From a phage, in the sequence record PZ171032.1: a DNA stretch of 64,000 nt. One strand, given 5' to 3'. The notes below the pieces were generated by a model that saw only the letters and a list, made by a program, of their open reading frames with translations, made no database searches and was not told the DNA's origin. Below, piece by piece: positions 1,627 through 63,300 of this stretch (within the stretch, counting starts at the first letter, position 1; the number at the start of each line of letters is the position of its first letter). The translations under genes were made by a program, and so were the position numbers.

Positions 1627-2544
1627 ATGATGAAGTATTTTAATGCAGACGACCTGGTTGACAAAGGTCTTGTAACCAGCAGATATTACCCAGATCTTGG
1701 ATTAAAGATCTACAAATATGCCAGAAAAGTATTCTACAACAATTTATGGCATTTGTCTCCGCGTTTACTAGAGTGCCGAGGCATTGTTGTCGGTAATGAA
1801 GGAAATGTTGTGGCATGGCCCTTCACAAAAGTGTTTAATTTGGGAGAAAACTCCACCAACCTGCCTGACAATAAACTTGTGACGGCGGTAGAGAAAAAGA
1901 ACGGATTCCTTGGTGTGGTATCATCTCATAAAGGTGAACTATTGTTTTCAACAACCGGGTCTCTTGATTCTCCATATTGTAACCTTGCAAAGGAAACCAT
2001 CCAGGAGCAATGTGGTAATTTAGATCTTATCAAGAAGGTTATGGGCCATGAAAACATGACATTCATGTTTGAAATTTGTCACCCTTCAGATCCGCATATT
2101 GTTCAGGAAGATCATGGCGCATATTTGATAGGTTGCAGATATAATGATTCCGGAATAATGCTACCAGAAGCGGCTTTAGATGGGATTGCCAAATACCTTG
2201 GTGCAAAACGTCCTCACACTGTGCGTGAAATTCCGTTCAGTTATGCAAAAGAATTAGCTGCAGAAACAAGAGGTGAAGGGTATATGATTCGTAAGCCTTA
2301 CTACCCTTATGACCTGCAGCTGAAGATTAAGTCTCCATACTATCTGGCACGGAAGGCCGTAATGAGGGGTAAAGCTTGGAAGATTTGGGATGATGATATC
2401 TTTAAACGTATTGACGAAGAGTTTTATGGCATGGTAAACTTCATTCGTAGCAATTACACAGAAGATGTGTGGAACTGCCTCCTGGAGCAGGAACGCCGTG
2501 AGATACTTGATTACTATTTCCACAACGAGAACTATATGCAATGA
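1627..2544 (+). CDS. Rnl2-family RNA ligase (nucleotidyltransferase)
   Basis: EGYMIRKPYYPY and KIKSP match recalled T4 Rnl2 motifs IV (EGYVLKP) and V (KxK); candidate motif I KKNGF; motif III-like FMFE. Start set at ATGATG (1627) behind the same 17-nt initiation cassette used by the phosphatase gene. Confidence 0.55.
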   Translation: MMKYFNADDLVDKGLVTSRYYPDLGLKIYKYARKVFYNNLWHLSPRLLECRGIVVGNEGNVVAWPFTKVFNLGENSTNLPDNKLVTAVEKKNGFLGVVSSHKGELLFSTTGSLDSPYCNLAKETIQEQCGNLDLIKKVMGHENMTFMFEICHPSDPHIVQEDHGAYLIGCRYNDSGIMLPEAALDGIAKYLGAKRPHTVREIPFSYAKELAAETRGEGYMIRKPYYPYDLQLKIKSPYYLARKAVMRGKAWKIWDDDIFKRIDEEFYGMVNFIRSNYTEDVWNCLLEQERREILDYYFHNENYMQ

Positions 2545-2589
2545 AGAAGTGGAAAGTTATTTTTAATCACTCCAGCTTAAGGGGCCTGT

Positions 2590-3198
2590 ATGAAACTTGT
2601 ACATGGTGTTGGTGTTAATGATGCAGACTATCCTGTCAGGGTTTTAGACAAGGATACTGGAAAGAGAATCATGTGTCCTTTTTATATGACATGGTCAAAT
2701 ATGCTAGGAAGGTGCTACCTTAAAAACAAGAAATTTGAAGCTTATGCTATGGTAGAAGTCTGTGAAGAATGGAAAATCTTCAGCAACTTCAAGCGTTGGA
2801 TGGAAAAACAAGATTGGCAGGATAAATTTTTAGATAAAGATATCCTCTTTGAAAATAATCTTGTATACTGTCCAGAAGCGTGTATTTTTGTTCCCCGTGA
2901 AATAAACAACTTCTTTGTAGCAAGGATGCCACAAAGAGGGGAGTGTTTAATGGGAGTAAGAAGAAAAGGCCCATCTTTTGCTGCCTATTGCAAAGATGGG
3001 GTTAAGGACACGCAGGTTTATCTTGGAACCTTCCCCACGCAGATTGAGGCACATATGAGATACTTAGAATGTAAACTGCAACTTCTTAGAGATTTGATTA
3101 GAACTGTAGATGACAGTAGGTTGCTATTAGGATTACGAAGAATTGAAAATAAGATAGTTTTAGCTTTATCTTCAAAAACACCGATAGAGAATTTTTAG
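2590..3198 (+). CDS. homing-endonuclease-like DNA-binding protein with C-terminal AP2 domain
   Basis: C-terminal GVRRKGPSFAAYCKDGVKDTQVYLGTFPTQIEAHMRY fits the AP2 DNA-binding domain found in phage HNH/homing endonucleases; N-terminal YxxWxxMxxRC-type motif. No clear catalytic motif seen. Confidence 0.45.
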   Translation: MKLVHGVGVNDADYPVRVLDKDTGKRIMCPFYMTWSNMLGRCYLKNKKFEAYAMVEVCEEWKIFSNFKRWMEKQDWQDKFLDKDILFENNLVYCPEACIFVPREINNFFVARMPQRGECLMGVRRKGPSFAAYCKDGVKDTQVYLGTFPTQIEAHMRYLECKLQLLRDLIRTVDDSRLLLGLRRIENKIVLALSSKTPIENF

Positions 3199-21731: not shown

Positions 21732-22010
21732 ATGAGCTGCGAAAAATCTTTTTTCATCATCATTTACGGTAAGGATAACTGCCCACATTGTGTCAGAGCA
21801 AAAGAATTTGCAATCAGCAAAGGTCTGCCTTTTGTATATAAGACACTTGGCGAGGGCTACACAAAAGAAGAGCTTATTGAGAAGTGCAGTCCAATTGTCC
21901 CCAGAACGTTGCCGCAGATCTTCTTAGAAAGCGATCTTGACAGTGTCCATATAGGCGGTGCCGACGATTTCATCTCTTTTGTTAAGAATGGTTTTGGAGA
22001 GAAAAAGTGA
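21732..22010 (+). CDS. glutaredoxin/thioredoxin-like redoxin (NrdH/NrdC-like)
   Basis: YGKDNCPHCVRAKEF CxxC active site; 92 aa; placed between RNR genes. Confidence 0.75.
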   Translation: MSCEKSFFIIIYGKDNCPHCVRAKEFAISKGLPFVYKTLGEGYTKEELIEKCSPIVPRTLPQIFLESDLDSVHIGGADDFISFVKNGFGEKK

Positions 22011-22867
22011 AAGTTGTAAAACGGGACGGTAGAGAAGAGTTCTATAACGGAATTAAGGTGATCAAGGCGGCAGAGTCCGCCTTACTTGAGTCTGGACATA
22101 CTGAAGAAGAAGCTTACCGGATCGCCTGCGCGGTTAATGAAGTTGTTGCTAACAATCTACCAACCGACCAGTGCACGATCTCTGTAAAAAATATCCATAT
22201 CCTTGTTGAAGATGCTCTTATGGATATGGGTTTAAAATGTGCAGCCAGAGAATACATCCAGTATAGACAGACAAGAGATAATAACAGAGAGGCAGGTGGA
22301 AAACTGCTTGCAGATATTAGTGGCTTCTTGGATCGAACTTGTGATGAATTTACAAAAGAAAACGCAAATAAGCCTACTAATCATGTACACACTCATCGCG
22401 ACCTGCTTGCAGGTATTCTTAGCAAACACCTTGCATCAACACAGATCCTGCCAGACCGTGTCTCCGAAGAGCACAATAAAGGATTCATCCATGTGCATGA
22501 TCTTGACTACTTGATCAGTCCGTTAACAAACTGTTGTTTGGTAAATTATCCAGATATGTTGGAAAACGGATTCAACATTGGTAACGCCCATGTCAGTAAG
22601 CCGAAGTCAATAGGGGTTGCAACAACAATCCTTAGCCAAATCTCTAGTGCGGTAGCTAGTGCTCAATATGGTGGTCAGACTATGAGCCATATTGATCATT
22701 ATCTGGCACAGTATGCTGAAGCGACCTATGAGAAGAACCTTAAATTTTGCCAGGAACATTGGTTGCCAGATGCTGAAACTGTTGCAATGCAAATGACAGA
22801 TAAAGACGTGTTTGACAGCATGCAGACGTTGCTTTATCAGATCAACACACTAACCTCGGTAAACGGT
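22007..22867 (+). CDS. nrdD: anaerobic ribonucleoside-triphosphate reductase, exon 1 of 3
   Basis: ATP-cone VVKRDGREEFYNG; sequence colinear with recalled T4 NrdD up to ...INTLTSVNG. Exon ends with U (GGT), followed by an in-frame TAA that opens the intron. Confidence 0.85.
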
Positions 22868-23124
22868 TAACAAACTGGCCGTTTTAAAACTCTGCTAACC
22901 TCAGTATGAGGGGTCAGCTGATCGCTGGCTAACGGGGAACGCTAAGGCGAAAGCTATGCCAATCCCGTGACTAGCTTCACAAGGAGTGAGGCGGTTGTAA
23001 CGACTAACCTTTTGGTGTAGGGATTATGGAAGATTCCGAAACGCAGGGGTCTGATTAATAATCACACGGTGTGATTTCAGGCAAGAGATAGTCTGGCCTT
23101 GTGGAAACATAAGGGTGGGGACCG
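22868..23124 (+). mobile_element. group I intron 1 in nrdD (257 nt, no ORF)
   Basis: Exon ends in U, intron ends in G. Internal guide GCCGUUU (22878-22884) pairs with the last 7 exon nt AAACGGU. R-like GTTGTAACGACTAAC and S-like AAGAGATAGTC core elements. Exon 2 reading frame resumes exactly as in T4 NrdD (NG|QTPF). Confidence 0.8.
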
Positions 23125-23424
23125 CAAACCCCTTTTATCACATTAAGTTTAGGTCTGGACACCTCAGTATTTGGTAGAATGATTACCAAAAACTACTTGA
23201 AAGTCCACAAAATGGGTCTTGGTGAAGAACGTATCACACCTGTGTTCCCTAAGGTGCTGTTCTTCCTGGAAGATGGTGTCAACATGAACCCTGGAGATCC
23301 TAACTATGATTTGAAACGATTAGCTCTGGAATGCTCTGCAGAGCGGATTTATCCTGACTTTGTTTCTGTTCCACTAAATCGTAAAGTGACAGGCTCGACA
23401 GATGGCAAAGTAACGAGCATGGGT
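23125..23424 (+). CDS. nrdD: anaerobic ribonucleoside-triphosphate reductase, exon 2 of 3
   Basis: Translation QTPFITLSLGLDTSVFGRMITKNYLKVHKMGLGEERITPVFPKVLFFLEDGVNMNPGDPNYDLKRLALECSAERIYPD... is colinear with the central part of T4 NrdD; the track ORF 23179..23433 is this exon. Confidence 0.8.
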
Positions 23425-24186
23425 AAACTATAACTGCTCATGTAAAATCTATCTAAACGGGGAAACTCCAGAACGGACAATCCCGTGCTAAACGTAACAG
23501 AACTCCTGACCAAGAGGAGTCCTGAAATGAGAAAACAAATTCGTGATTTTGAAGGTTATGAAATTGACGAGATGGGCAATGTTTATTGCACCCGCTACGA
23601 AAATGAAAGAATTATTCATTCGTGGGAAGAGATAAACACAGGTTACCGTCTTGTTAGGATACGCAAGAACAAAAAGACTGTTTGCCTAAGGGTTCACAGA
23701 CTTGTTGCTGAAGCGTTCTTACCAAATCCAGACAATTTACCCTATGTTAAGCACAAAGGGGACAACAGGAAAGATAACAGTGTGTACAACCTTGAGTGGG
23801 GAGCTTGCCCAGACAATACGCAAGAAGGATACAACAACAACTGTTATGCTTTTTACACAAGATGCCACGGTGTGAAAGCCACCAACAAATTAACTGGTGA
23901 GGTTTTCCACTTTAAAAGTCTGAGATGTTGTGCTGATGTTTTAGGAGTAGATAGAAAAAGAATATCTGCTATCCTGAAACGTGGTGCGCCTAATAACTAT
24001 GATTACGAGTTCTGTTACGAAATGCCTAACGACTAACCGTGATGAATGTAGCGGTGTAGGGTGTAAGCCGATGACACTCGAAATGGTAGACACACTAAGT
24101 GTGAAGATATAGTCTGATCTGCATGGGGACATGCAGCAGCACGTAAAGGTGCGGGGGTGGACTTGCGAACCACCCTGAACATAATG
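23425..24186 (+). mobile_element. group I intron 2 in nrdD (762 nt) carrying an HNH homing endonuclease ORF
   Basis: Exon 2 ends in U (ATG GGT), intron ends in G (..ACATAATG). Candidate guide GCUCAUG near the 5' end; S-like AAGATATAGTCTG near the 3' end. Exon 3 resumes at CRSFLS exactly as in T4 NrdD. Confidence 0.7.
23485..24036 (+). CDS. HNH homing endonuclease (intron-encoded)
   Basis: VHRLVAEAF...HKGDNRKDNSVYNLEW HNH_3-type motif; lies wholly inside intron 2. Confidence 0.75.
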   Translation: MLNVTELLTKRSPEMRKQIRDFEGYEIDEMGNVYCTRYENERIIHSWEEINTGYRLVRIRKNKKTVCLRVHRLVAEAFLPNPDNLPYVKHKGDNRKDNSVYNLEWGACPDNTQEGYNNNCYAFYTRCHGVKATNKLTGEVFHFKSLRCCADVLGVDRKRISAILKRGAPNNYDYEFCYEMPND

Positions 24187-25149
24187 TGTAGAAGTTTCTT
24201 ATCGAAATATAGCGACCCTGTAACAGGTGAGGAGAAATACCTTGGCAGATTTAACTTAGGCGTTGTTAGCCTTAACCTGCCAATGATTGCGGCAAAAGCT
24301 AAGATGGAAGGTGTTGATTTCTTTGCAGTTCTTGACGAATACTTGGATCTTGCATACGAGGCTCACCTTGTAAGGGTTAACCGTCTAAAAGGAACAAAGG
24401 CAGGGCAGAACCCCATCATGTGGTGTGAAGGCGCTCTTGCTCGCCTAGATCCTGAAGAAAGTATTGATAAACTCTTCTATGACGGGTACGCTTCCATCAG
24501 CATTGGGTACATTGGTGTGTATGAAACCTGTCAGATTTTGGGCAGAGAGGGTGACAAGGCTTTAGCTCTTGGAATCCTTCAGCACATGAGAGATGCTTGT
24601 GAGCGATACAAGAAGGAAAGTAGACTAGCATTTAGCTTGTACGGCACTCCTTCTGAGAGTCTATGCTATAAAGCTGCAACCTGTCTGGATCGTGAATATC
24701 CGGAAGTGTTGAAGCACGAGCATGAATATCTCACCAACAGTTTCCATCAGCCAGTGTGGATAAATAGCTCTCCTTTTGATAAGTGGGAGTATGAGGAAGG
24801 TTTTGCTATGATCTCCTCTGGTGGCAACATTGGATACGTAGAGACACCTAACCTGAAAAACAACCTGGATGCTTTAGAGGCTCTTGTTGACTTCGGGTAT
24901 AAACATATTATGTATTTTGGTATTAACCAACCTGTGGATAAATGTCTCAAGTGTGGTTTCTCTGGTGAGTTCAGTGCAACAGCTAAAGGGTTCTGCTGCC
25001 CTGCGTGCGGATGCCACGATGAACAATATATCTCAGTGATCCGAAGAGTGTCTGGATATCTTTCCAGTCCTAACTCCCGTCCTTACAATAAAGGTAAGCA
25101 AGCGGAAGTTATCGAGCGAGTTAAGCACTACGGAAGTTGTGGTTGCTGA
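24187..25149 (+). CDS. nrdD: anaerobic ribonucleoside-triphosphate reductase, exon 3 of 3 (glycyl-radical domain)
   Basis: C-terminal zinc site CLKCGF...CCPACGC and glycyl radical motif RRVSGYL; colinear with T4 NrdD C-terminus. Confidence 0.85.
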   Translation, partial: CRSFLSKYSDPVTGEEKYLGRFNLGVVSLNLPMIAAKAKMEGVDFFAVLDEYLDLAYEAHLVRVNRLKGTKAGQNPIMWCEGALARLDPEESIDKLFYDGYASISIGYIGVYETCQILGREGDKALALGILQHMRDACERYKKESRLAFSLYGTPSESLCYKAATCLDREYPEVLKHEHEYLTNSFHQPVWINSSPFDKWEYEEGFAMISSGGNIGYVETPNLKNNLDALEALVDFGYKHIMYFGINQPVDKCLKCGFSGEFSATAKGFCCPACGCHDEQYISVIRRVSGYLSSPNSRPYNKGKQAEVIERVKHYGSCGC

Positions 25150-57213: not shown

Positions 57214-57584
57214 TGATCGGTCTCCTTCTTGTTAAGTCTGAATACTGCAATAATAGCATTCCCAAGGTGCAGTGTCAAATCATTTCCAAGATACCACAGC
57301 ATTCCACGGTCATCTTTGATGAAAGGGTGACAATCTGGTGCCTTCCAGACATTGTACACTTTCCCAACCTGAAAGAAATCAGGCCCTGTTGGGATTTTAG
57401 TGCCTGGCCACACTTGAGATACCTGAACACACTCCACCTGCATAATAACAGGGATAGTCATGGATGTAAATGTTTTTGTTGGTTCTACTACCATAAAAGT
57501 CTCCTCTTTGCTCAACAACACTTCCATGTGTTGATAGTTTACATTAGTGACAATCACCCCAATTACGACCACACAGGTATTCAC
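57210..57584 (-). CDS. protein with C-terminal paralog family B domain
   Basis: FFQVGKVYNVWK...FIKDDRGMLWYLGN...; N-terminal part may be shorter than the track ORF. Confidence 0.45.
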   Translation of the reverse strand: MNTCVVVIGVIVTNVNYQHMEVLLSKEETFMVVEPTKTFTSMTIPVIMQVECVQVSQVWPGTKIPTGPDFFQVGKVYNVWKAPDCHPFIKDDRGMLWYLGNDLTLHLGNAIIAVFRLNKKETDQ

Positions 57585-57897
57585 CTGTGATCTGGAACGG
57601 GACGCCCATCATTTTAGAAGCTTGCCAGAAGCAATGCACCACCATTTCACCCACAGGGCTCCAGATAAGTTCAAGCTTTCCGTCATCGTTCAGGATAGGA
57701 TCGTACACCGTGTTTCCGTCTCTGTCAACCACTTCGTTTCCGTCCTCATCCTTGCGTGCCTTTTTGTACTTATGACCGTCGAACACATGAAGTTTGGCCT
57801 CCTGCTCTGCCTTAAATGCTTCCAGTTCTTCAATTGTGTCGAAGGTGTACACAGTCTTATACTTCGGTGTGTCAGGCACTTGAAGTTGGTACTCATC
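57544..57897 (-). CDS. DNA polymerase (family A, T7 gp5-like), exon 2 of 2 (motif C to C-terminus)
   Basis: Exon begins DEYQLQV, completing ...YYH|DE (motif C HDE); C-terminus ...GEYLCGRNWGDCH matches recalled T7 gp5 end ...GKMGPNWAICH. Confidence 0.75.
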   Translation of the reverse strand, partial: DEYQLQVPDTPKYKTVYTFDTIEELEAFKAEQEAKLHVFDGHKYKKARKDEDGNEVVDRDGNTVYDPILNDDGKLELIWSPVGEMVVHCFWQASKMMGVPFQITGEYLCGRNWGDCH

Positions 57898-58739
57898 CAA
57901 TAGTTCAGGTAGGTCGTTAAGCTACCCCGCACCATTACGTGCACAGCCATACAGTTTCCTGTATGGATCGGACTATCTCACTACCTTGTTACCAAGGCAC
58001 CTCCCATTTCGACCGCACTTGCTGGCCTACTCTACTCGCTTCTTCGCACCAATTTATGTTGGCGCTATGCTTTCGATAGTCTCTGAACGTTACTACCAGG
58101 TGTAGTTTTTAGAGATATGTTTCCACTGTCTTCTTTGCTTTATGGCTCTGACCGTCTCATAAGGATACCCAAGATCCCTAATCTCGCATTGTCGTAAACC
58201 ACTTTGTAACAGTTCGCAAATCTCCGTTACCTCATCCTCGGTCAGTACAGCGTTGGCATTATACTCACCGACTGGCCTTACTCTGAGGTCATTATCATAA
58301 GCGTGTTTGATATTTCCACCAGGGGTGGTCCATTCAAGGTTCCAGTATGCATTGTTGTATTTGTTTCCGTCCTTATGGTTCACCCATGTGAGCCTTTCAG
58401 GATCAGGGTTTGATACAAAGCATTCAGCAACCAAGTGGTGGACACCTTTTGTGCACTGCTTCCCCTCGATGAACATGGTTACGCAAAGGTAACCTCGACC
58501 ATTATCAAAACAGAACATTGTTGTATGATCACGTTTCGATAAAGGTATTGTTCCATCATCAAACACGGTATATCCGTGATAATCAACTGATCTAGCCATT
58601 TTAACTACACCCCTTTAGTCTTCGCTGCGGATTAGCATATTGAGCTTTTACCATGTTTAGGTGTAAAAGTCAACTTAGCCTTCCCGTCAATTAAAGAGGT
58701 TTTCGACGTGCATCACTGCACGAAGCCACAATGTTATTT
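57898..58739 (-). mobile_element. group I intron in the DNA polymerase gene (842 nt) carrying an HNH homing endonuclease ORF
   Basis: Exon 1 ends in U (CAT), intron ends in G (..TTG). Minus-strand R-like GTTCAGAGACTATCG directly after the HNH stop and S-like AGATAGTCC core elements. Frame and motif C are restored across the junction. Confidence 0.75.
58093..58599 (-). CDS. HNH homing endonuclease (intron-encoded)
   Basis: VHHLVAECF...VNHKDGNKYNNAYWNLEW HNH_3-type motif; AAAGGGGTG SD. Confidence 0.75.
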   Translation of the reverse strand: MARSVDYHGYTVFDDGTIPLSKRDHTTMFCFDNGRGYLCVTMFIEGKQCTKGVHHLVAECFVSNPDPERLTWVNHKDGNKYNNAYWNLEWTTPGGNIKHAYDNDLRVRPVGEYNANAVLTEDEVTEICELLQSGLRQCEIRDLGYPYETVRAIKQRRQWKHISKNYTW

Positions 58740-61163
58740 ATGGTAATAGATAATACGACGAACACCTTCATCGTACCACCCACGCTTCACCATTTGGTGG
58801 TGCATAAGTATCCCAACTAAGTCACACAGCGATGCACCACCATTCTGTTGGTATGCATTAAGTAAAGAGTGTTTAGATCGGGTCCAGATGGCATGACCAT
58901 CAAAAGAGTAGATAAACTTCTTACCCGTTGCTTCCCAGAATTTCTCCAGATCCTCTTTACGCCCCTTAAGACCAGGGTTGGCATCCCAAAGTGCATCGAT
59001 CACCCTTTGTCCCAACTCTGGAGAGATGTCCAGCATATCTGCAACTTTATCTTTTTGTGCCCCGTACATAACCCCATACGTGATAGGTTTACCGTCGTTA
59101 CGAGACACCTCTCTGCCTGCTACTTTTGTATATGCCTCAGCATTGTTTTGGTGTGCGTCCCCGTTACTTACAACATCATAATACAAGCCGTTGTCGAACT
59201 CAAAGGCACCCCAAGCCCCGATAAGCTGCTCTAAGTTGGACCCGTCAATACCGATCTCAAAGTATCCTGGAGGAACACCCCACAGACTACGCATCTCTTT
59301 ACCCATAACCACTTTAGGAGATGGTTTAGGCATGTTTGCACAAATACTGTGTTTCTGTCTGGAAGTGTTTGTTAATCCAGAGCTTTTAGCAGGAAGCTTA
59401 TGGTCAATCTTCAAACGTGGGTGATTAAGAAGACCAGTATCAACCTTATCCTCCTTAATTGGATCAAGGACCGATCTGCGGTTTCGCAATGATAACCACA
59501 AGACGATATCTTTAGCCATCTCTCCGTTCAATTTTTCAAGATTCGGACATAGGTGTCCAAACGTATCTTTCAGTTGCGGAGAAGTAATAAGTGCTCTGGC
59601 TTTTCTACGTATTTTCCCGAATACTTCCTTTTTAATCCTTTCGGAGTTAGGAAAGCTTCGGAACTTGTGCACGGTTGTCTGGAACTTAGCATCAGTTTTG
59701 TTCCAGAAGTTGATAATCAGGTCACAATACTCTGACTCTAAAAGCTCGTCCATATATGCATATACTCGTGCATCAACATCTGCATCAGGTAGAGCTTTCT
59801 TCTTGCTGTCTTTAGTTACATCCTTAGTTCTCCACATTGTCGGAAGCCAACCAGCACTGATCAGGTATCGCTTAATATCGTCCTGATTGCTGATTTTCAT
59901 AGGTATCTTGCAGTCAGGCATTCGCTTCTGCTGCAGATCGCTTATTGCCTGATCCATCAGCTCTTTAGGTAAAGGTTGTGGTGTGGAGGTGCCCTTAATA
60001 TAACCTCTCAAGAAATCAGCCATCTTGTCTGGGTCTTTGCAGCCCATCTCTTCACACCATTTTATCCCCATTTTACTGACATCTCCTGTGGAGGTAAATG
60101 CTCGCTTAGGTGGGGCTTTGAACTCTAAAGCGCTCATGTCTACAGGATAGCCAAGCTTATCTTTTAACCATTTCCAACCATTATTGGAGATTGTCCCATC
60201 TTGGTTAAACGGCTTTTCAGGGAACTTGGGCCGCTGAGACATTGACAGCTCTTTTAAAGGTAGTTGTGGTTCAACACGATCAGCTATTTCTTTCATCCAC
60301 GCATCGCAACGGTCACGTAAAGCAATAGCCCCGTCTATGTCGAAATACACACCCTGACGGGCCTGCAGCTCCATCAGGAAGTGCTGCAGCATGCCTCGGC
60401 GTAATGCGTTCTTCCAGGTGATCTTCTTGAACCCTTTTGGCTTCTCTTTGGCAGGATCGTACATAAAGTTCTGCATGTCAGATTTGCCGTAGAATACACC
60501 TTTTGATTCCGCTACCAGCTCTTTCCAGAGCAGCTCCTGGATGATAACGTCCTCGAATACACGATCCACATACTTCCACAGCGGAAGATCGCGCCAGTCA
60601 TCAATTTGAACTTTCTGGTTACCAAGAGCGTAGCCCCATGCCATAAGGCCGTGAGGACCAACAGGCTGCATTTTCTTAGTAACCGGGTTGAATACAGAGT
60701 CCGGACAACCTTTTGGTAAAGGGCGATCAGGCCACAAGATTCGGCTCATCGCCAACGTATCGAACAGGTTAACCTGGTGGTCGTTGATAGTCCCCATACA
60801 TTTAGGATCACGGAACATATCAAAATGAATACCGGATAATCTCTCCATCAGCATAAAGTCATAACTGTAGCAGTTATGGCAGTTCAAAGCTGTTGGTGAC
60901 CAGTCGGAATTTCCTGTAAGCCAACCTTCCAACTCCGAAAAATCTGCTATGCGAACTTCAAAATCTTTATAAAGAGTTTTCTTTGCCAGAATAAAGTTCT
61001 TAGCCTTCTCTATATCCTCCTCGGAGTAGTGTGTGCGGTCATTTAGAGGAAGGAACAGCATAAAACGGTTCTTATTCAGCTCTTTAAACAGGCCGCAATG
61101 ATAATAAAGATCTGGGTCTTCCAGCAAACCGGATGACTCAAAATCGAACGACCACATGCTCAT
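58740..61163 (-). CDS. DNA polymerase (family A, T7 gp5-like), exon 1 of 2
   Basis: 3'-5' exo motif FDFESSG; LMAWGYALGN, GIDGSNLEQL (motif A), KPITYGVMYGAQ (motif B) colinear with recalled T7 gp5; track ORF stops just before motif C. Confidence 0.85.
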
Positions 61164-61221: not shown

Positions 61222-63300
61222 TTAAAAAGGTGTTTCATCATCCTCAAAACCAGGAACATGGTCAGAGGACGGATCATCGTACTGGAGGTCTTCCTGCGTG
61301 TCAACAGGCTTAACAGTAGGAGTTACAACCTTATCAGCCACAACCTTACCCATAGGTGTTTCTACAACTGCATGCTCCTGATCCTCAAACATAGCCTGAG
61401 GTCTCCAAACAACCTCCCCACCTTCTCCATCTGTAAACATTTGCATTTCTTTGTCCCAGTACCAATTACTGGCATCATGGAACTTACCTGTATGTGGGTC
61501 CATAACCAAAGTGTCTGCAATACCTAAAGTTTTTGCTGGACGGTTTTTAAGACCTACCAGTCGGACACGCCCACGAGAACGATCCACCATTTCTTCGGCC
61601 TCGACACCTATGACTACCCAACTCAACTGTTCAAGCCCAGCCGATCCTCGCAAATTCTCTTTTCGCACAGGATACCAGAAAGGTAACGGGTTACCATCCT
61701 TGTCCTTAGGAGGCACAATCTCTGTACGTTTGAGGTGAGCGATCACCAAGATAAACACATTGAACTGCTTACAAAACGCAGCCAGCTGGGTCATAGCCAT
61801 GTCCAGTTCTTTTCGCTCATCCTTAACATTAAGCCCCGAAATTACCATAGACAGGTGATCCAGCACAATATAACGGCAATGGTACAGGCAAACCATTTGC
61901 TTAAGCTTGGTAATCAACTCGTCCACCGGAATAGACCCGAAATGTTTGAACACTTTGATTTTTCCAGCTTTTGCCCATGATTGGTGAATCTCTGCGTGTT
62001 CTTGATCAGTTAAAAACTGGCTAGGATCTTCAACAAACTCTTTAACATCAAACCCTAGCTGGTTTGCATACAAGGAGTTAATTGCTTCCTCTGGGTCCTC
62101 CTCAAGATGGATCATGCATAGACGATCATCCTCTTCATAGTCATCGGCCTTCGGGCATGTCGGGTCCATCAAGTATCTTGCAATACAATGTTCCAGTTTT
62201 TTAGCTACAGTTGTTTTACCGCCCCCTGATGGCCCTGTAAGCATTACGAGTGTCCCTTTGTGCAAGCCTTTTAGCATTTTTTGCAGTTTTGGAAACTCTG
62301 CGCTGATATCTACCCCGTTGGAAGTCTTTTTCCGCAAAGATTCGATAGAGAAGTCTTCTAAATCCGACACAGCATCAGGCACATACTTAACAGGATGCCG
62401 GAACATGTTTACAATATCTTCCAGCTTTTTAGCCTTTAGCATGTCACGGATATCTTTTACACCGTCAGGATCGTTTACCTCACCGGGGTATTCTACGTGG
62501 TAAACGTTATCAGCCATCAAAAATGCTGCGATATTGTGCGTGGCCTCAACACCTTTAATGACGTGTTTTTGCTTCTCTACCTCGTTAGCTGCATCGTTAT
62601 CCATTGCCAGCACAACTGTTCCATAGCTACGGATAAACTTCTCATTGTTTGCAAAAGTATCTACTGCGTTTGCACATCCACAGTTAATTCCAACAAAAGG
62701 CAGGCATGGTTTTCCTGCCAGATCGCCACCGTTGATAACTGCATCGATCCCGTCCTGGACCTCTTTAGCCCACTGTTTCACCTTTGCCGGGGCTTTAGCG
62801 TTGGTGAGAATCCCTTTTACTTGTATCTGATATGCAGCCTGCCATGCTGCAATAACATCACCTTCTCCCTCACAAACGTTAATCTGCTTACGGTTGTTGG
62901 AAGATGCACACAGCTTTTGACCAAACATCTGAGAGTTAGCCTTTACTATGCCAACAACGGAGAAATGGCCTCTTTGCTCTTTAGGAATCGTCCAGTCACG
63001 CTTTTTGAAACCGGACAGATTTCCGTAGCGGTCGTAATATGGGAAATATGTTGCAGTGACTGTCACACCATCTTCTTGGGATAATGCTGATCGCACACCA
63101 AAATATTGTGCAGCCATCAGACCGATATTTTGTTGTGGGACAGGGACAATTTTAGTATTTTCTAAAACAGTCTCTACAGTTTCAACTTCTTTTTCATCAC
63201 GATAGTCTCGTTTCACACTTCCCCCACTTTTATACTTAGTTGCTTTCGGGTTTGGCTCACCGAAACGGTTGTATGCAGATGCCATAAATTTACTTCCCAT
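61222..63300 (-). CDS. DNA primase-helicase (T7 gp4-like: TOPRIM + DnaB-family helicase)
   Basis: TOPRIM VCEGEGDVIA; Walker A LTGPSGGGKTT; Walker B IVLDHLS; acidic C-terminal tail ending ...EDDETPF. Confidence 0.85.
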   Translation of the reverse strand: MGSKFMASAYNRFGEPNPKATKYKSGGSVKRDYRDEKEVETVETVLENTKIVPVPQQNIGLMAAQYFGVRSALSQEDGVTVTATYFPYYDRYGNLSGFKKRDWTIPKEQRGHFSVVGIVKANSQMFGQKLCASSNNRKQINVCEGEGDVIAAWQAAYQIQVKGILTNAKAPAKVKQWAKEVQDGIDAVINGGDLAGKPCLPFVGINCGCANAVDTFANNEKFIRSYGTVVLAMDNDAANEVEKQKHVIKGVEATHNIAAFLMADNVYHVEYPGEVNDPDGVKDIRDMLKAKKLEDIVNMFRHPVKYVPDAVSDLEDFSIESLRKKTSNGVDISAEFPKLQKMLKGLHKGTLVMLTGPSGGGKTTVAKKLEHCIARYLMDPTCPKADDYEEDDRLCMIHLEEDPEEAINSLYANQLGFDVKEFVEDPSQFLTDQEHAEIHQSWAKAGKIKVFKHFGSIPVDELITKLKQMVCLYHCRYIVLDHLSMVISGLNVKDERKELDMAMTQLAAFCKQFNVFILVIAHLKRTEIVPPKDKDGNPLPFWYPVRKENLRGSAGLEQLSWVVIGVEAEEMVDRSRGRVRLVGLKNRPAKTLGIADTLVMDPHTGKFHDASNWYWDKEMQMFTDGEGGEVVWRPQAMFEDQEHAVVETPMGKVVADKVVTPTVKPVDTQEDLQYDDPSSDHVPGFEDDETPF

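Follow-up and report, generated by a model that had tools for sequence, protein, structure and literature searches.

The td, nrdB, and nrdD (sunY) genes of T4 carry IA-type introns in genes of nucleotide metabolism; in these introns, endonuclease ORFs loop out from peripheral helices, and RNA structure sequesters the ribosome-binding sites. The endonucleases of these introns are of the GIY-YIG type (I-TevI and I-TevII) or of a different HNH type (I-TevIII). The intron described here shares with them the large E. coli myovirus host and the IA type, whereas the interrupted genes differ. Group I introns encoding nicking HNH endonucleases (I-HmuI, I-HmuII, I-BasI, and I-PfoP3I) also occur in the family A polymerase genes of SPO1, SP82, Bastille, and Pf-WMP3, as in the present case, but at another insertion site, Pol I 674 (TGRLSS.DP/N; a slash marks an insertion or splice point throughout). 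A 43-kb phage contig considered as a T7-like case of the site studied here was rejected because its intron is located at Pol I 674. The 3′ end of that intron resembles the 3′ end of the one described below.

The T7-like phages PhiI and W31 are described as having group IA2 introns at Pol I “site 881,” which encode the HNH endonuclease I-TslI from an ORF in P6a (Bonocora and Shub, 2004, as reported in PMC3428280). Residues 881–883 of E. coli Pol I were found to be His-Asp-Glu and thus, by site number, these introns would share the codon boundary of the present intron. The ORF is likewise in P6a, whereas the hosts are podoviruses with a 704-aa-type polymerase; the likeness is drawn from the site number and description given in the latter source. 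In Pectobacterium phage CB7 (Certrevirus, Vequintavirinae), the polymerase introns are group I introns with HNH genes, and RT-PCR with Sanger sequencing demonstrated splicing at the H/DE site (PMC7344957). For rV5, the genome paper describes introns in terminase only and a polymerase of 775 aa (PMC3606486).

The window, the entire 64,000-nt stretch of phage DNA analyzed here (PZ171032.1), contains at 57544..61163 on the minus strand what is almost certainly a single DNA polymerase gene of family A from an rV5-like phage (Vequintavirus), in which an 842-nt mobile group I intron separates His808 from Asp809 of motif C. Annotations of this intron already exist in public phage genomes, its class has long been known, and the novelty implied by the original prediction is not supported. 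The introns of EmilHeitz (MZ501062) and WalterGehring (MZ501111), phages of the BASEL collection (Maffei et al., 2021; PMC8594841), are 100% and 99.6% identical to it, and both records give a joined two-piece polymerase CDS with a nested homing endonuclease. The EmilHeitz exons differ from those of the window by three amino acids, and the product spliced at the same boundaries is exactly QXV77979.1. LL12 (MH491969) has an ORF-less version of the intron, also within a joined CDS, under the record note “intron-interrupted gene.” In the CB7 intron (CB7_50), the H/DE site is identical, the 5′ end (AAGUAACAUUGUGGCUU) and 3′ end are the same, and the 3′ half is homologous. On the other hand, the HNH protein of CB7 is, at 127 aa, the shorter of the two and has an unrelated placement, with its ORF starting upstream of the 3′ strand of P4. 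A further CB7 intron, located about 111 codons upstream, is absent from the window.

The polymerase gene and its splice junction

All three minus-strand ORFs were confirmed, namely 58734..61163 (809 aa, ending in ...RRIIYYHK and a stop codon), 58093..58599, and 57544..57900 (118 aa), the last with a mechanically assigned TTG start that represents the final three nucleotides of the intron and is followed by DEYQLQV.... Exon 1 (58740..61163) comprises 808 codons from Met1 to His808, its 3′ end being set by intron-less alleles, and exon 2 (57544..57897) comprises 117 codons and a stop, from Asp809-Glu810 of motif C to the C-terminal ...GRNWGDCH. Joining 58740 to 57897 yields an open frame of 925 aa (...RRIIYYH/DEYQLQV...). 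The predicted ligated-exon junction reads ...UAUUACCAU/GAUGAGUAC... or ...TATTACCAT/GATGAGTAC..., and the peptide across it in the predicted protein is ...IIYYHDEYQLQVPDTPK.

Close phage relatives whose gene is uninterrupted fix the predicted splice boundaries to the nucleotide. The intron-less sister-phage alleles read ...TATTACCAT/GAYGAR... exactly across the splice point (CCAT/GAYGAR), and the 925-aa product spliced in silico is identical to the annotated polymerases QHR76242.1 (phage nomine, uninterrupted gene) and QXV77543.1. Because of this match at the splice point and this protein identity, the arrangement of ORFs and junction is not due to chance.

The assignment to family A polymerases was borne out, as PHROG DNA-polymerase families matched both exons strongly and Pfam DNA_pol_A matched exon 1 weakly. 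The profile phrog_8888 is contiguous across the junction (positions 1-185 in exon 1 and 185-295 in exon 2). Residues 468-658 of T7 gp5 align with spliced residues 633-813 (E 7e-16), and this alignment runs through motif C as predicted, with the restored HDE at T7 gp5 H653-D654-E655; the C-terminal ...NW..CH also matches T7 gp5. The product thus contains motifs A, B, and C in the expected order, HDE in motif C, and the C-terminal His of T7 gp5-like enzymes.

Without splicing, translation of exon 1 would continue into AAA TAA and stop at the second codon of the intron, and the resulting truncated protein would be missing the Asp-Glu of motif C. An active polymerase would therefore need splicing; this dependence had been predicted and is a sound inference, yet it holds for all such introns. 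An intein is ruled out by the in-frame stops and by the RNA structure. It is very improbable that the gene is instead simply split by a free-standing HNH gene, with the two exons translated separately and reassembling as a two-subunit enzyme. Many depositors do annotate two separate “DNA polymerase” CDSs and an HNH gene, the NrdA of Aeromonas phage Aeh1, split by mobE, is reported as a case of this kind without splicing (cited in PMC7344957), and the CB7 HNH insertion CB7_245 did not splice (PMC7344957). However, exon 2 has neither an ATG nor a Shine-Dalgarno sequence at its start, the terminal UUG of the intron being its sole “start,” and the break would sit between the His and the Asp-Glu of one catalytic motif. 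Moreover, a free-standing gene explains neither the ORF-less insertions of 276-328 nt at the identical site nor the conserved ribozyme fold around the ORF with its 27 covarying pairs, and the homologous CB7 insertion splices. An artefact of sequencing or assembly, or a dead polymerase pseudogene, has nothing in its favor and is excluded by existing data for practical purposes, as about 32 plaque-forming phages, each sequenced independently, share this 842-nt insertion at 94-100% identity and both exons are perfectly conserved.

Ribozyme fold and predicted splicing

The intron (57898..58739, minus strand) starts with AAAUAACAUUGUGG and ends with ...CUAUUG, its terminal (omega) G being at 57898. 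A search of Rfam, proposed along with the prediction of a group I intron, returned no match for the whole window at the gathering threshold, whereas in E-value mode RF00028 (group I intron) aligned over its full model (1-253) at 39.9-40 bits (E 2.7e-8 to 1e-6; gathering cut-off 50 bits) with a 510-nt insert in P6. The low score is attributable to the ORF insertion; the 276-nt ORF-less intron of rV5, which occupies the same site, reaches 64.7 bits and so exceeds this cut-off of 50. No group II family appeared in the general Rfam scans. The prediction of a group I intron is upheld by covariation, by homology to the CB7 intron that was shown to splice, and, below the gathering score for the window intron itself, by Rfam.

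P1 (58726..58743) consists of exon CCAU (58743..58740) and intron AA (58739..58738) paired with the internal guide UUGUGG (58731..58726), with a U·G wobble between the splice-site U58740 and G58729 (CCAUAA with UUGUGG). P1 is invariant in all 10 different introns at the site, and the exon-terminal U in this wobble and the intron-terminal G, both predicted and both present (U58740 and G57898), are invariant in 10/10, as in group I introns generally. The 5′ half of the core (58623..58722), seen in covariation, the thermodynamic fold, and the Rfam match, contains P2 (58722..58707, GUGA loop), the 5′ strand of P3 (58700..58694), P4 (58689..58683 with 58631..58626), P5/P5a/P5b (58680..58634), and the 5′ strand of P6 (58625..58623). 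In the 3′ half of the catalytic core (57971..58081), identified by the Rfam match and covariation, P7 (GACUAU 58081..58076 with AUAGUC 57976..57971) encloses P7.1/P7.1a (58065..58046), P7.2 (58027..58011), the 3′ strand of P3 (58005..57999), and P8 (57998..57983). The P9-P9.2 region (57907..57966) follows, with P9 (57966..57947, GAAA loop), P9.1 (57943..57928), and P9.2 (57927..57907). From the extra P7.1 and P7.2 hairpins between the 5′ strand of P7 and the 3′ strand of P3, the intron is classified as IA-like, putatively of the IA2 type.

Covariation was evaluated for a hand-drawn structure (66 pairs, P1-P9.2) across the 10 introns, with P5a/P5b and P7.1, which are not alignable across lineages, excluded from the formal count. 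Among cells, 97.0% were paired, compared with 36-41% in slid controls, although this value is inflated by the structure having been drawn from the sequence of the window. The double changes, which are not affected in this way, were found in 27/66 pairs vs. 0-6 in slid controls. The covariation score was 0.375 (≤0.088 in slid controls) and was reached by 0/500 shuffles. Compensatory changes occur in P2, P3, P6, P7, P7.2, P8, P9, and P9.2, supporting a conserved P3-P8 core with the P3/P7 pseudoknot, and the thermodynamic fold recovered most helices (z = -3.05).

Following the established group I mechanism, exon CCAU would pair with the guide UUGUGG to place the U·G wobble at the splice site, and an external guanosine bound in P7 would attack after U58740. 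The terminal G57898 would then take the G site, and the freed 3′-OH of exon 1 would attack before G57897. This step may be assisted by P10, in which CAUU (58733..58730) can pair with GAUG of exon 2 (57897..57894), a putative helix of only 4 bp proposed from complementarity alone. Ligation of the exons would produce an mRNA for the 925-aa polymerase. Splicing in this phage is predicted from the identity of the spliced product with uninterrupted polymerases and from the homology to CB7.

The endonuclease reading frame in P6a

The intron-borne HNH endonuclease of the original prediction proved to be related to I-HmuI. Its ORF (58093..58599, minus strand; 168 aa and a stop codon) contains the motif ...VNHKDGNKYNNAYWNLEW... 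and lies within a 528-nt insertion in P6a (58092..58619). The ends of this cassette pair with each other, ACUAAAGGGGUGUAGUU (58619..58603), which includes a Shine-Dalgarno-like AAGGGG, with AACUACACCUGGUAGU (58107..58092), which includes the stop codon (duplex -17.2 kcal/mol). This pairing of the ribosome-binding region of the ORF with its own 3′ end probably limits translation of the endonuclease in the folded intron. In the introns of SYGMH1 and 19-1-2, the cassette is swapped exactly for a 14-15-nt hairpin. A scan for promoters and terminators inside the intron found 4 sites vs. 2.9 expected, which is not above chance and therefore does not indicate that the endonuclease has its own promoter.

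The protein matches PHROG 59 (E 9.3e-38) and, among solved structures, is closest to I-HmuI (PDB 1u3e, E 4.5e-6), the alignment extending through the catalytic motif (VHHLVAECF...NHKDGNKYNN...NLEW); the match to Pfam HNH_3 is weak (17.7 bits vs. a cut-off of 24.8). The protein has the HNH/HNN motif of I-HmuI-like HNH proteins, with its His and its two Asn in place. The ORF is intact and, judging from substitution patterns, is under strong purifying selection, with pN/pS of 0.03 vs. FV3 (23 synonymous and 3 non-synonymous differences) and 0.10 vs. Av-05. The position aligned with Asp74 of I-HmuI, a metal ligand, is Asn in the window protein (VNHKD), and endonuclease activity is consequently not assured.

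Allele states at the H/DE site

The end of exon 1 recovered only two contigs in a scan of IMG/VR, too few for population analysis, and the counts were therefore drawn from an annotated phage collection. This collection holds about 118 near-identical genes, of which approximately 58 are intron-less, 29 have the rV5-type ORF-less intron, and 32 have the HNH-bearing intron. The distribution is patchy among genes that are 97-99% identical, which suggests ongoing gain and loss of the intron. By analogy with I-HmuI, I-BasI, I-TwoI, and I-PfoP3I, the HNH protein would, in mixed infections, nick polymerase alleles that lack the intron close to the point of insertion, and repair of the nicked allele would copy the intron in (homing).

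An alternative is that the element is decaying, with a ribozyme that still splices, an HNH protein that no longer cuts DNA, and an intron that is now inherited only vertically. The Asn at the Asp74-equivalent position would fit such decay, as would the ORF-less derivatives of the same intron in SYGMH1 and 19-1-2, which show that the ORF has been lost within the lineage. This alternative is nevertheless unlikely, considering that about 32 records have an intact ORF, that the ORF is under the strong purifying selection noted above, that the motif has kept its His and its two Asn, and that the patchy distribution points to continuing gain and loss.

The intron-less alleles are of two types. The Murica-type alleles (about 14 records) have the intron-type flank, GATGAGTACCAA, whereas the JES2013-type alleles (about 44 records) have four synonymous changes clustered within the four codons that follow the site (GACGAATATCAG) and may be endonuclease-resistant. 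Selection for P10 pairing was considered as the cause of GAUGAG vs. GACGAA after the splice site and was dropped because the Murica-type alleles, which are also intron-less, have GATGAGTACCAA as well. The site thus exists in four states, namely empty Murica-type, empty JES2013-type, ORF-less introns (two lineages), and HNH-bearing introns. In the subfamily as a whole, three different endonuclease genes appear to occupy three different loops: the I-HmuI-like HNH lies in P6a, that of CB7, which is a different HNH, in the P5/P6 region, and the LAGLIDADG of PVP-SE1 in the P7.1/P7.2 region. Tentatively, the H/DE site of Vequintavirinae could be regarded as an exceptionally full picture, taken in nature, of the life cycle of homing endonucleases, with four states co-circulating in one genus on exons 91-99% identical and three independent endonuclease invasions of the same ribozyme across the subfamily.

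Biologically, this is a textbook example of a mobile group I intron and opens no new question. Its value for annotation arises because most rV5-like genomes, including the RefSeq entries of rV5 and FV3, list the polymerase as two or three unrelated fragments, and the records of isim and others also give separate fragments, while the true product is predicted to be 925 aa. Relatives in all allele states are available, many of them sequenced and easily grown (BASEL and other collections), and the site could suit experiments on homing, on resistance through synonymous changes of the target site, and on the repeated invasion of one ribozyme by endonuclease genes.

A polymerase gene interrupted at motif C

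Three consecutive ORFs lie on the minus strand of the window. The first (58734..61163; 809 aa) contains exon 1 and ends in ...RRIIYYHK*, the second (58093..58599; 168 aa) encodes an HNH protein, and the third (57544..57900; 118 aa) contains exon 2, with DEYQLQV... after a mechanical TTG start. When base 58740 is joined to base 57897, an open frame of 925 codons results, ...RRIIYYH|DEYQLQVPDTPK..., in which U is the last base of exon 1 and G is the last base of the 842-nt intervening sequence; the original prediction had described the ORFs and the junction correctly. The upstream neighbor of the polymerase encodes a DnaB-type primase/helicase (61222..63300), and many rV5-like Escherichia phages (genus Vequintavirus) share 94-99% identity with the region. 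Some near-identical records carry a Campylobacter label, namely sixteen “Campylobacter phage” entries (MG065635 and others; host C. jejuni), which are 94-97% identical to the E. coli rV5-like phages over the polymerase locus. The host labels of these records look doubtful.

The proposed identity as a family A polymerase interrupted at motif C is upheld by both profile and pairwise comparisons. Exon 1 matches Pfam DNA_pol_A weakly (27.9 bits; cut-off 34.3), and the PHROG polymerase families match the exons strongly. Positions 1-185 of phrog_8888 correspond to the end of exon 1 and positions 185-295 to exon 2, and the profile is therefore contiguous over the junction. The suggested alignment of the spliced 925-aa product to T7 gp5 (residues 633-813 against 468-658; E 7e-16) passes through the catalytic HDE motif, with IIYYH|DEYQL falling on MAWVH653-D654-E655-IQV. 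The C-terminus GRNWGDCH also resembles GPNWAICH of T7. The stretch from motif C to the C-terminus is approximately 65 residues longer in exon 2 than its T7 counterpart.

Natural alleles define the boundaries of the insertion. The in-silico spliced junction was searched against the phage collection, and the relatives were classed by match span: JES2013, V18, slur12, nomine, and others match in one piece (754 bp; no insertion), rV5, LL12, and others over 1030 bp (276-bp insertion), and FV3, phiWec189, and others over 1596-1597 bp (842-bp insertion). In the alignment, the JES2013 allele reads ...TATTACCAT|GACGAATATCAG... (YYH|DEYQ) without interruption, and therefore the insertion occupies exactly 58739..57898, the only placement that restores the frame. 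The spliced product is identical at every residue to QHR76242.1, from the uninterrupted gene of phage nomine, and to QXV77543.1 (DrSchubert).

Intron fold and predicted splicing

The full length of the Rfam group I model aligns with the minus strand (58749..57948; 39.9 bits, E 2.7e-8), with a 510-nt insertion in P6. This search had been proposed as a check; its score falls below the gathering threshold of 50, at which the window intron is not reported. The 276-nt ORF-less intron of rV5 at the same site scores 64.7 bits. Ten distinct introns occupy exactly this codon boundary in four genera of Vequintavirinae and one record without a genus: window and FV3 (842 nt, HNH), Av-05 (843 nt, HNH), A5-4 and GEC_vB_MG (771-772 nt, HNH), CB7 (687 nt, HNH), PVP-SE1 (919 nt, LAGLIDADG), SYGMH1 (328 nt), 19-1-2 (317 nt), and rV5 and LL12 (276 nt). 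All ten begin with AARYAAYAUUGUGGCUU and end in ...UG, followed by GAUGAR.

A secondary structure was drawn by hand on the window sequence, based on the Rfam alignment and base complementarity, and comprises P1, P2, P3, P4, P5/5a/5b, P6/6a, P7, P7.1, P7.2, P8, P9, P9.1, and P9.2. Covariation was counted on the aligned, ORF-trimmed cores of the ten introns, excluding P5a/P5b and P7.1, which are not alignable between lineages, and partners slid by 1-3 columns served as the control. Standard pairs fill 97.0% of cells in the proposed structure (36-41% with slid partners), a figure favored by drawing the structure from one of the aligned sequences, whereas the double-change counts are free of this bias: 27 of 66 pairs changed on both sides, compared to 0-6 in the control. 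The covariation score is 0.375 (slid partners, ≤0.088), and none of 500 shuffles reached the observed values of these measures. With the ORF cassette swapped for the natural SYGMH1 hairpin, thermodynamic folding of the core recovers P2, P4-P5b, P6, P7.1a, P8, P9, and P9.1 (z = -3.05). P1 consists of exon CCAU and intron AA paired with UUGUGG and contains the canonical U.G at the splice site, and CAUU in its loop is complementary to GAUG of exon 2, making a P10 pairing possible. Together, the double changes and the full-length, sub-threshold Rfam match support the intervening sequence as a group I intron, as had been claimed. The presence of P7.1 and P7.2 places it in subgroup IA; such phage introns are usually IA2.

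Following established group I chemistry, guanosine would attack after U58740, and ligation of the exons after the terminal G57898 would yield the mRNA for the 925-aa enzyme. Unspliced RNA has a stop two codons inside the intron (AAA-UAA), and its product is missing the catalytic Asp-Glu. In CB7, polymerase fragments CB7_51 and CB7_49 flank the HNH gene CB7_50, with the same H|DE boundary and intron ends as in the window, and RT-PCR and Sanger sequencing of cDNA showed that the CB7_50 insertion is spliced out (Buttimer et al.; PMC7344957). By analogy, the window phage probably splices its intron as well. A split enzyme assembled without splicing has a precedent in Aeh1 NrdA but is very unlikely here: a start signal is lacking for exon 2, insertions without an ORF are found at the same site, the ORF lies within a covarying ribozyme, and the CB7 homologue is spliced. 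In Av-05, GEC_vB_MG, and CB7, a second insertion with an HNH gene interrupts the polymerase approximately 111-117 codons upstream of HDE, so that a short middle exon is set apart. This upstream insertion was also shown to splice in CB7 (PMC7344957) and is absent from the window.

Endonuclease genes within and around the intron

The predicted HNH assignment of the 168-aa ORF agrees with its matches to PHROG 59 (HNH endonuclease; E 9.3e-38) and, as the only match among solved structures, to I-HmuI (1u3e; E 4.5e-6), a nicking HNH enzyme encoded by the polymerase intron of SPO1, through ...VHHLVAECF...NHKDGNKYNN...NLEW; Pfam HNH_3 is under the cut-off. By comparison with characterized relatives, the putative enzyme would nick intron-less alleles close to the insertion site, and the intron would then be copied in by recombinational repair. 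The window protein has Asn at the position aligned with I-HmuI Asp74, a metal ligand, and so its activity is not to be taken for granted. Nevertheless, an intron with an already dead endonuclease is unlikely on the selection data: the ORF is intact in approximately 32 records, differs from that of FV3 by 23 synonymous and 3 non-synonymous changes (pN/pS ~0.03), and shows pN/pS ~0.10 against Av-05. The ORF is under purifying selection. The approximately 32 independent isolates exclude an artefact or pseudogene.

The ORF-bearing cassette (528 nt) lies in P6a, precisely where SYGMH1 and 19-1-2 have a 14-15-nt hairpin. Its ends pair together (-17.2 kcal/mol), burying a Shine-Dalgarno-like AAGGGG; Av-05, A5-4, and GEC_vB_MG have equivalent pairings. 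Endonuclease translation is repressed by RNA structure in T4 introns, and the predicted pairing may act similarly. A promoter scan detected no promoter-like signals above chance inside the intron.

Endonuclease genes occupy other loops of the same ribozyme in PVP-SE1 and CB7. In the PVP-SE1 intron (L009 701..1619), a LAGLIDADG gene sits between P7 and P7.2, and P6a is still a plain hairpin. The CB7 intron (L013 950..1636) has a 127-aa HNH that differs from that of the window and is encoded by an ORF beginning upstream of the 3′ strand of P4. These different genes in different loops suggest that endonuclease genes invaded the ribozyme independently.

Further endonuclease genes and interrupted genes were observed nearby and elsewhere. 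In WalterGehring, an additional free-standing gene for a “putative homing endonuclease” lies between polymerase and primase/helicase (L022 3761..4495); it is absent from the window, and FFH2, VB-EcoM-WM, and Mangalyan have an extra insertion of approximately 730-970 bp in the polymerase region with a second HNH annotation. The unannotated 43-kb phage contig ECO104 4-5-2 encodes a family A polymerase interrupted at ~1860..2590, following ...TGRLSASNP; this position corresponds to Pol I site 674, as in SPO1 and Pf-WMP3. A 180-aa ORF lies in the insertion, and approximately 80 nt at the 3′ end of the insertion share 79% identity with the P9 region of the window intron. Another divided gene in the window is nrdD, for the anaerobic ribonucleotide reductase (22007..25149, plus strand), which consists of a 5′ ORF (22007..22870; ATP-cone and NRDD profile positions 1-154), an I-HmuI-like HNH ORF (23485..24036; 183 aa), and a 3′ ORF (24157..25149; NRDD positions 263-562 and glycyl-radical domain). 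Sub-threshold Rfam group I matches occur at 22858..23114 (30.2 bits) and 24031..24136 (33.2 bits), and as these ORFs leave approximately 108 NRDD positions unaccounted for, the gene may contain two introns and an exon between them.

Allele states and prior annotation

The intron is polymorphic. Roughly 118 Vequintavirus records have at least 90% exon identity, comprising approximately 58 intron-less alleles, 29 with the rV5-type ORF-less intron, and 32 with the HNH intron; these approximate numbers include GenBank/RefSeq duplicates. Approximately 14 intron-less records have the Murica-type flank, GATGAGTACCAA, equal to all intron-bearing alleles, and approximately 44 have the JES2013-type flank, GACGAATATCAG, with four synonymous changes in the first four exon 2 codons (57897..57886; window compared with relatives L001/L005/L020 and L017-L019). 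The window and JES2013 differ at 25 of 1354 nt, and the 546 nt preceding the site are free of differences. Such a cluster is improbable by chance: for four out of four in a single specified run of third positions, P is 3.5e-6, rising to 1.6e-3 on correction for all runs. The JES2013-type cluster may be either a selected endonuclease-resistant target or a co-conversion boundary, neither of which is favored.

The intron itself is already known. EmilHeitz and WalterGehring, whose introns are 100% and 99.6% identical to that of the window, respectively, have a two-piece joined polymerase CDS with a nested “putative homing endonuclease”, and the EmilHeitz product spliced at the window-derived boundaries is exactly QXV77979.1. 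According to the BASEL paper, intron boundaries were found through comparative annotation (PMC8594841), and the LL12 record notes an “intron-interrupted gene”. The polymerase genes of T7-like phages PhiI and W31 are described as having group IA2 introns, each carrying an HNH ORF in P6a, at Pol I “site 881” (Bonocora and Shub, 2004, as cited in PMC3428280). Residues 881-883 of E. coli Pol I are H-D-E, and hence site 881 is the same codon boundary; the likeness, taken from published descriptions, concerns the site and ORF location. The rV5 genome paper reported a 775-aa polymerase and only terminase introns, missing the polymerase intron (PMC3606486), as many records still do.

The observation is confirmed, and its interpretation as one polymerase gene interrupted by a group I intron with an HNH endonuclease is supported with very high confidence. 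Its remaining value lies in correcting annotations and in the series of allele states, which may provide an experimental system.
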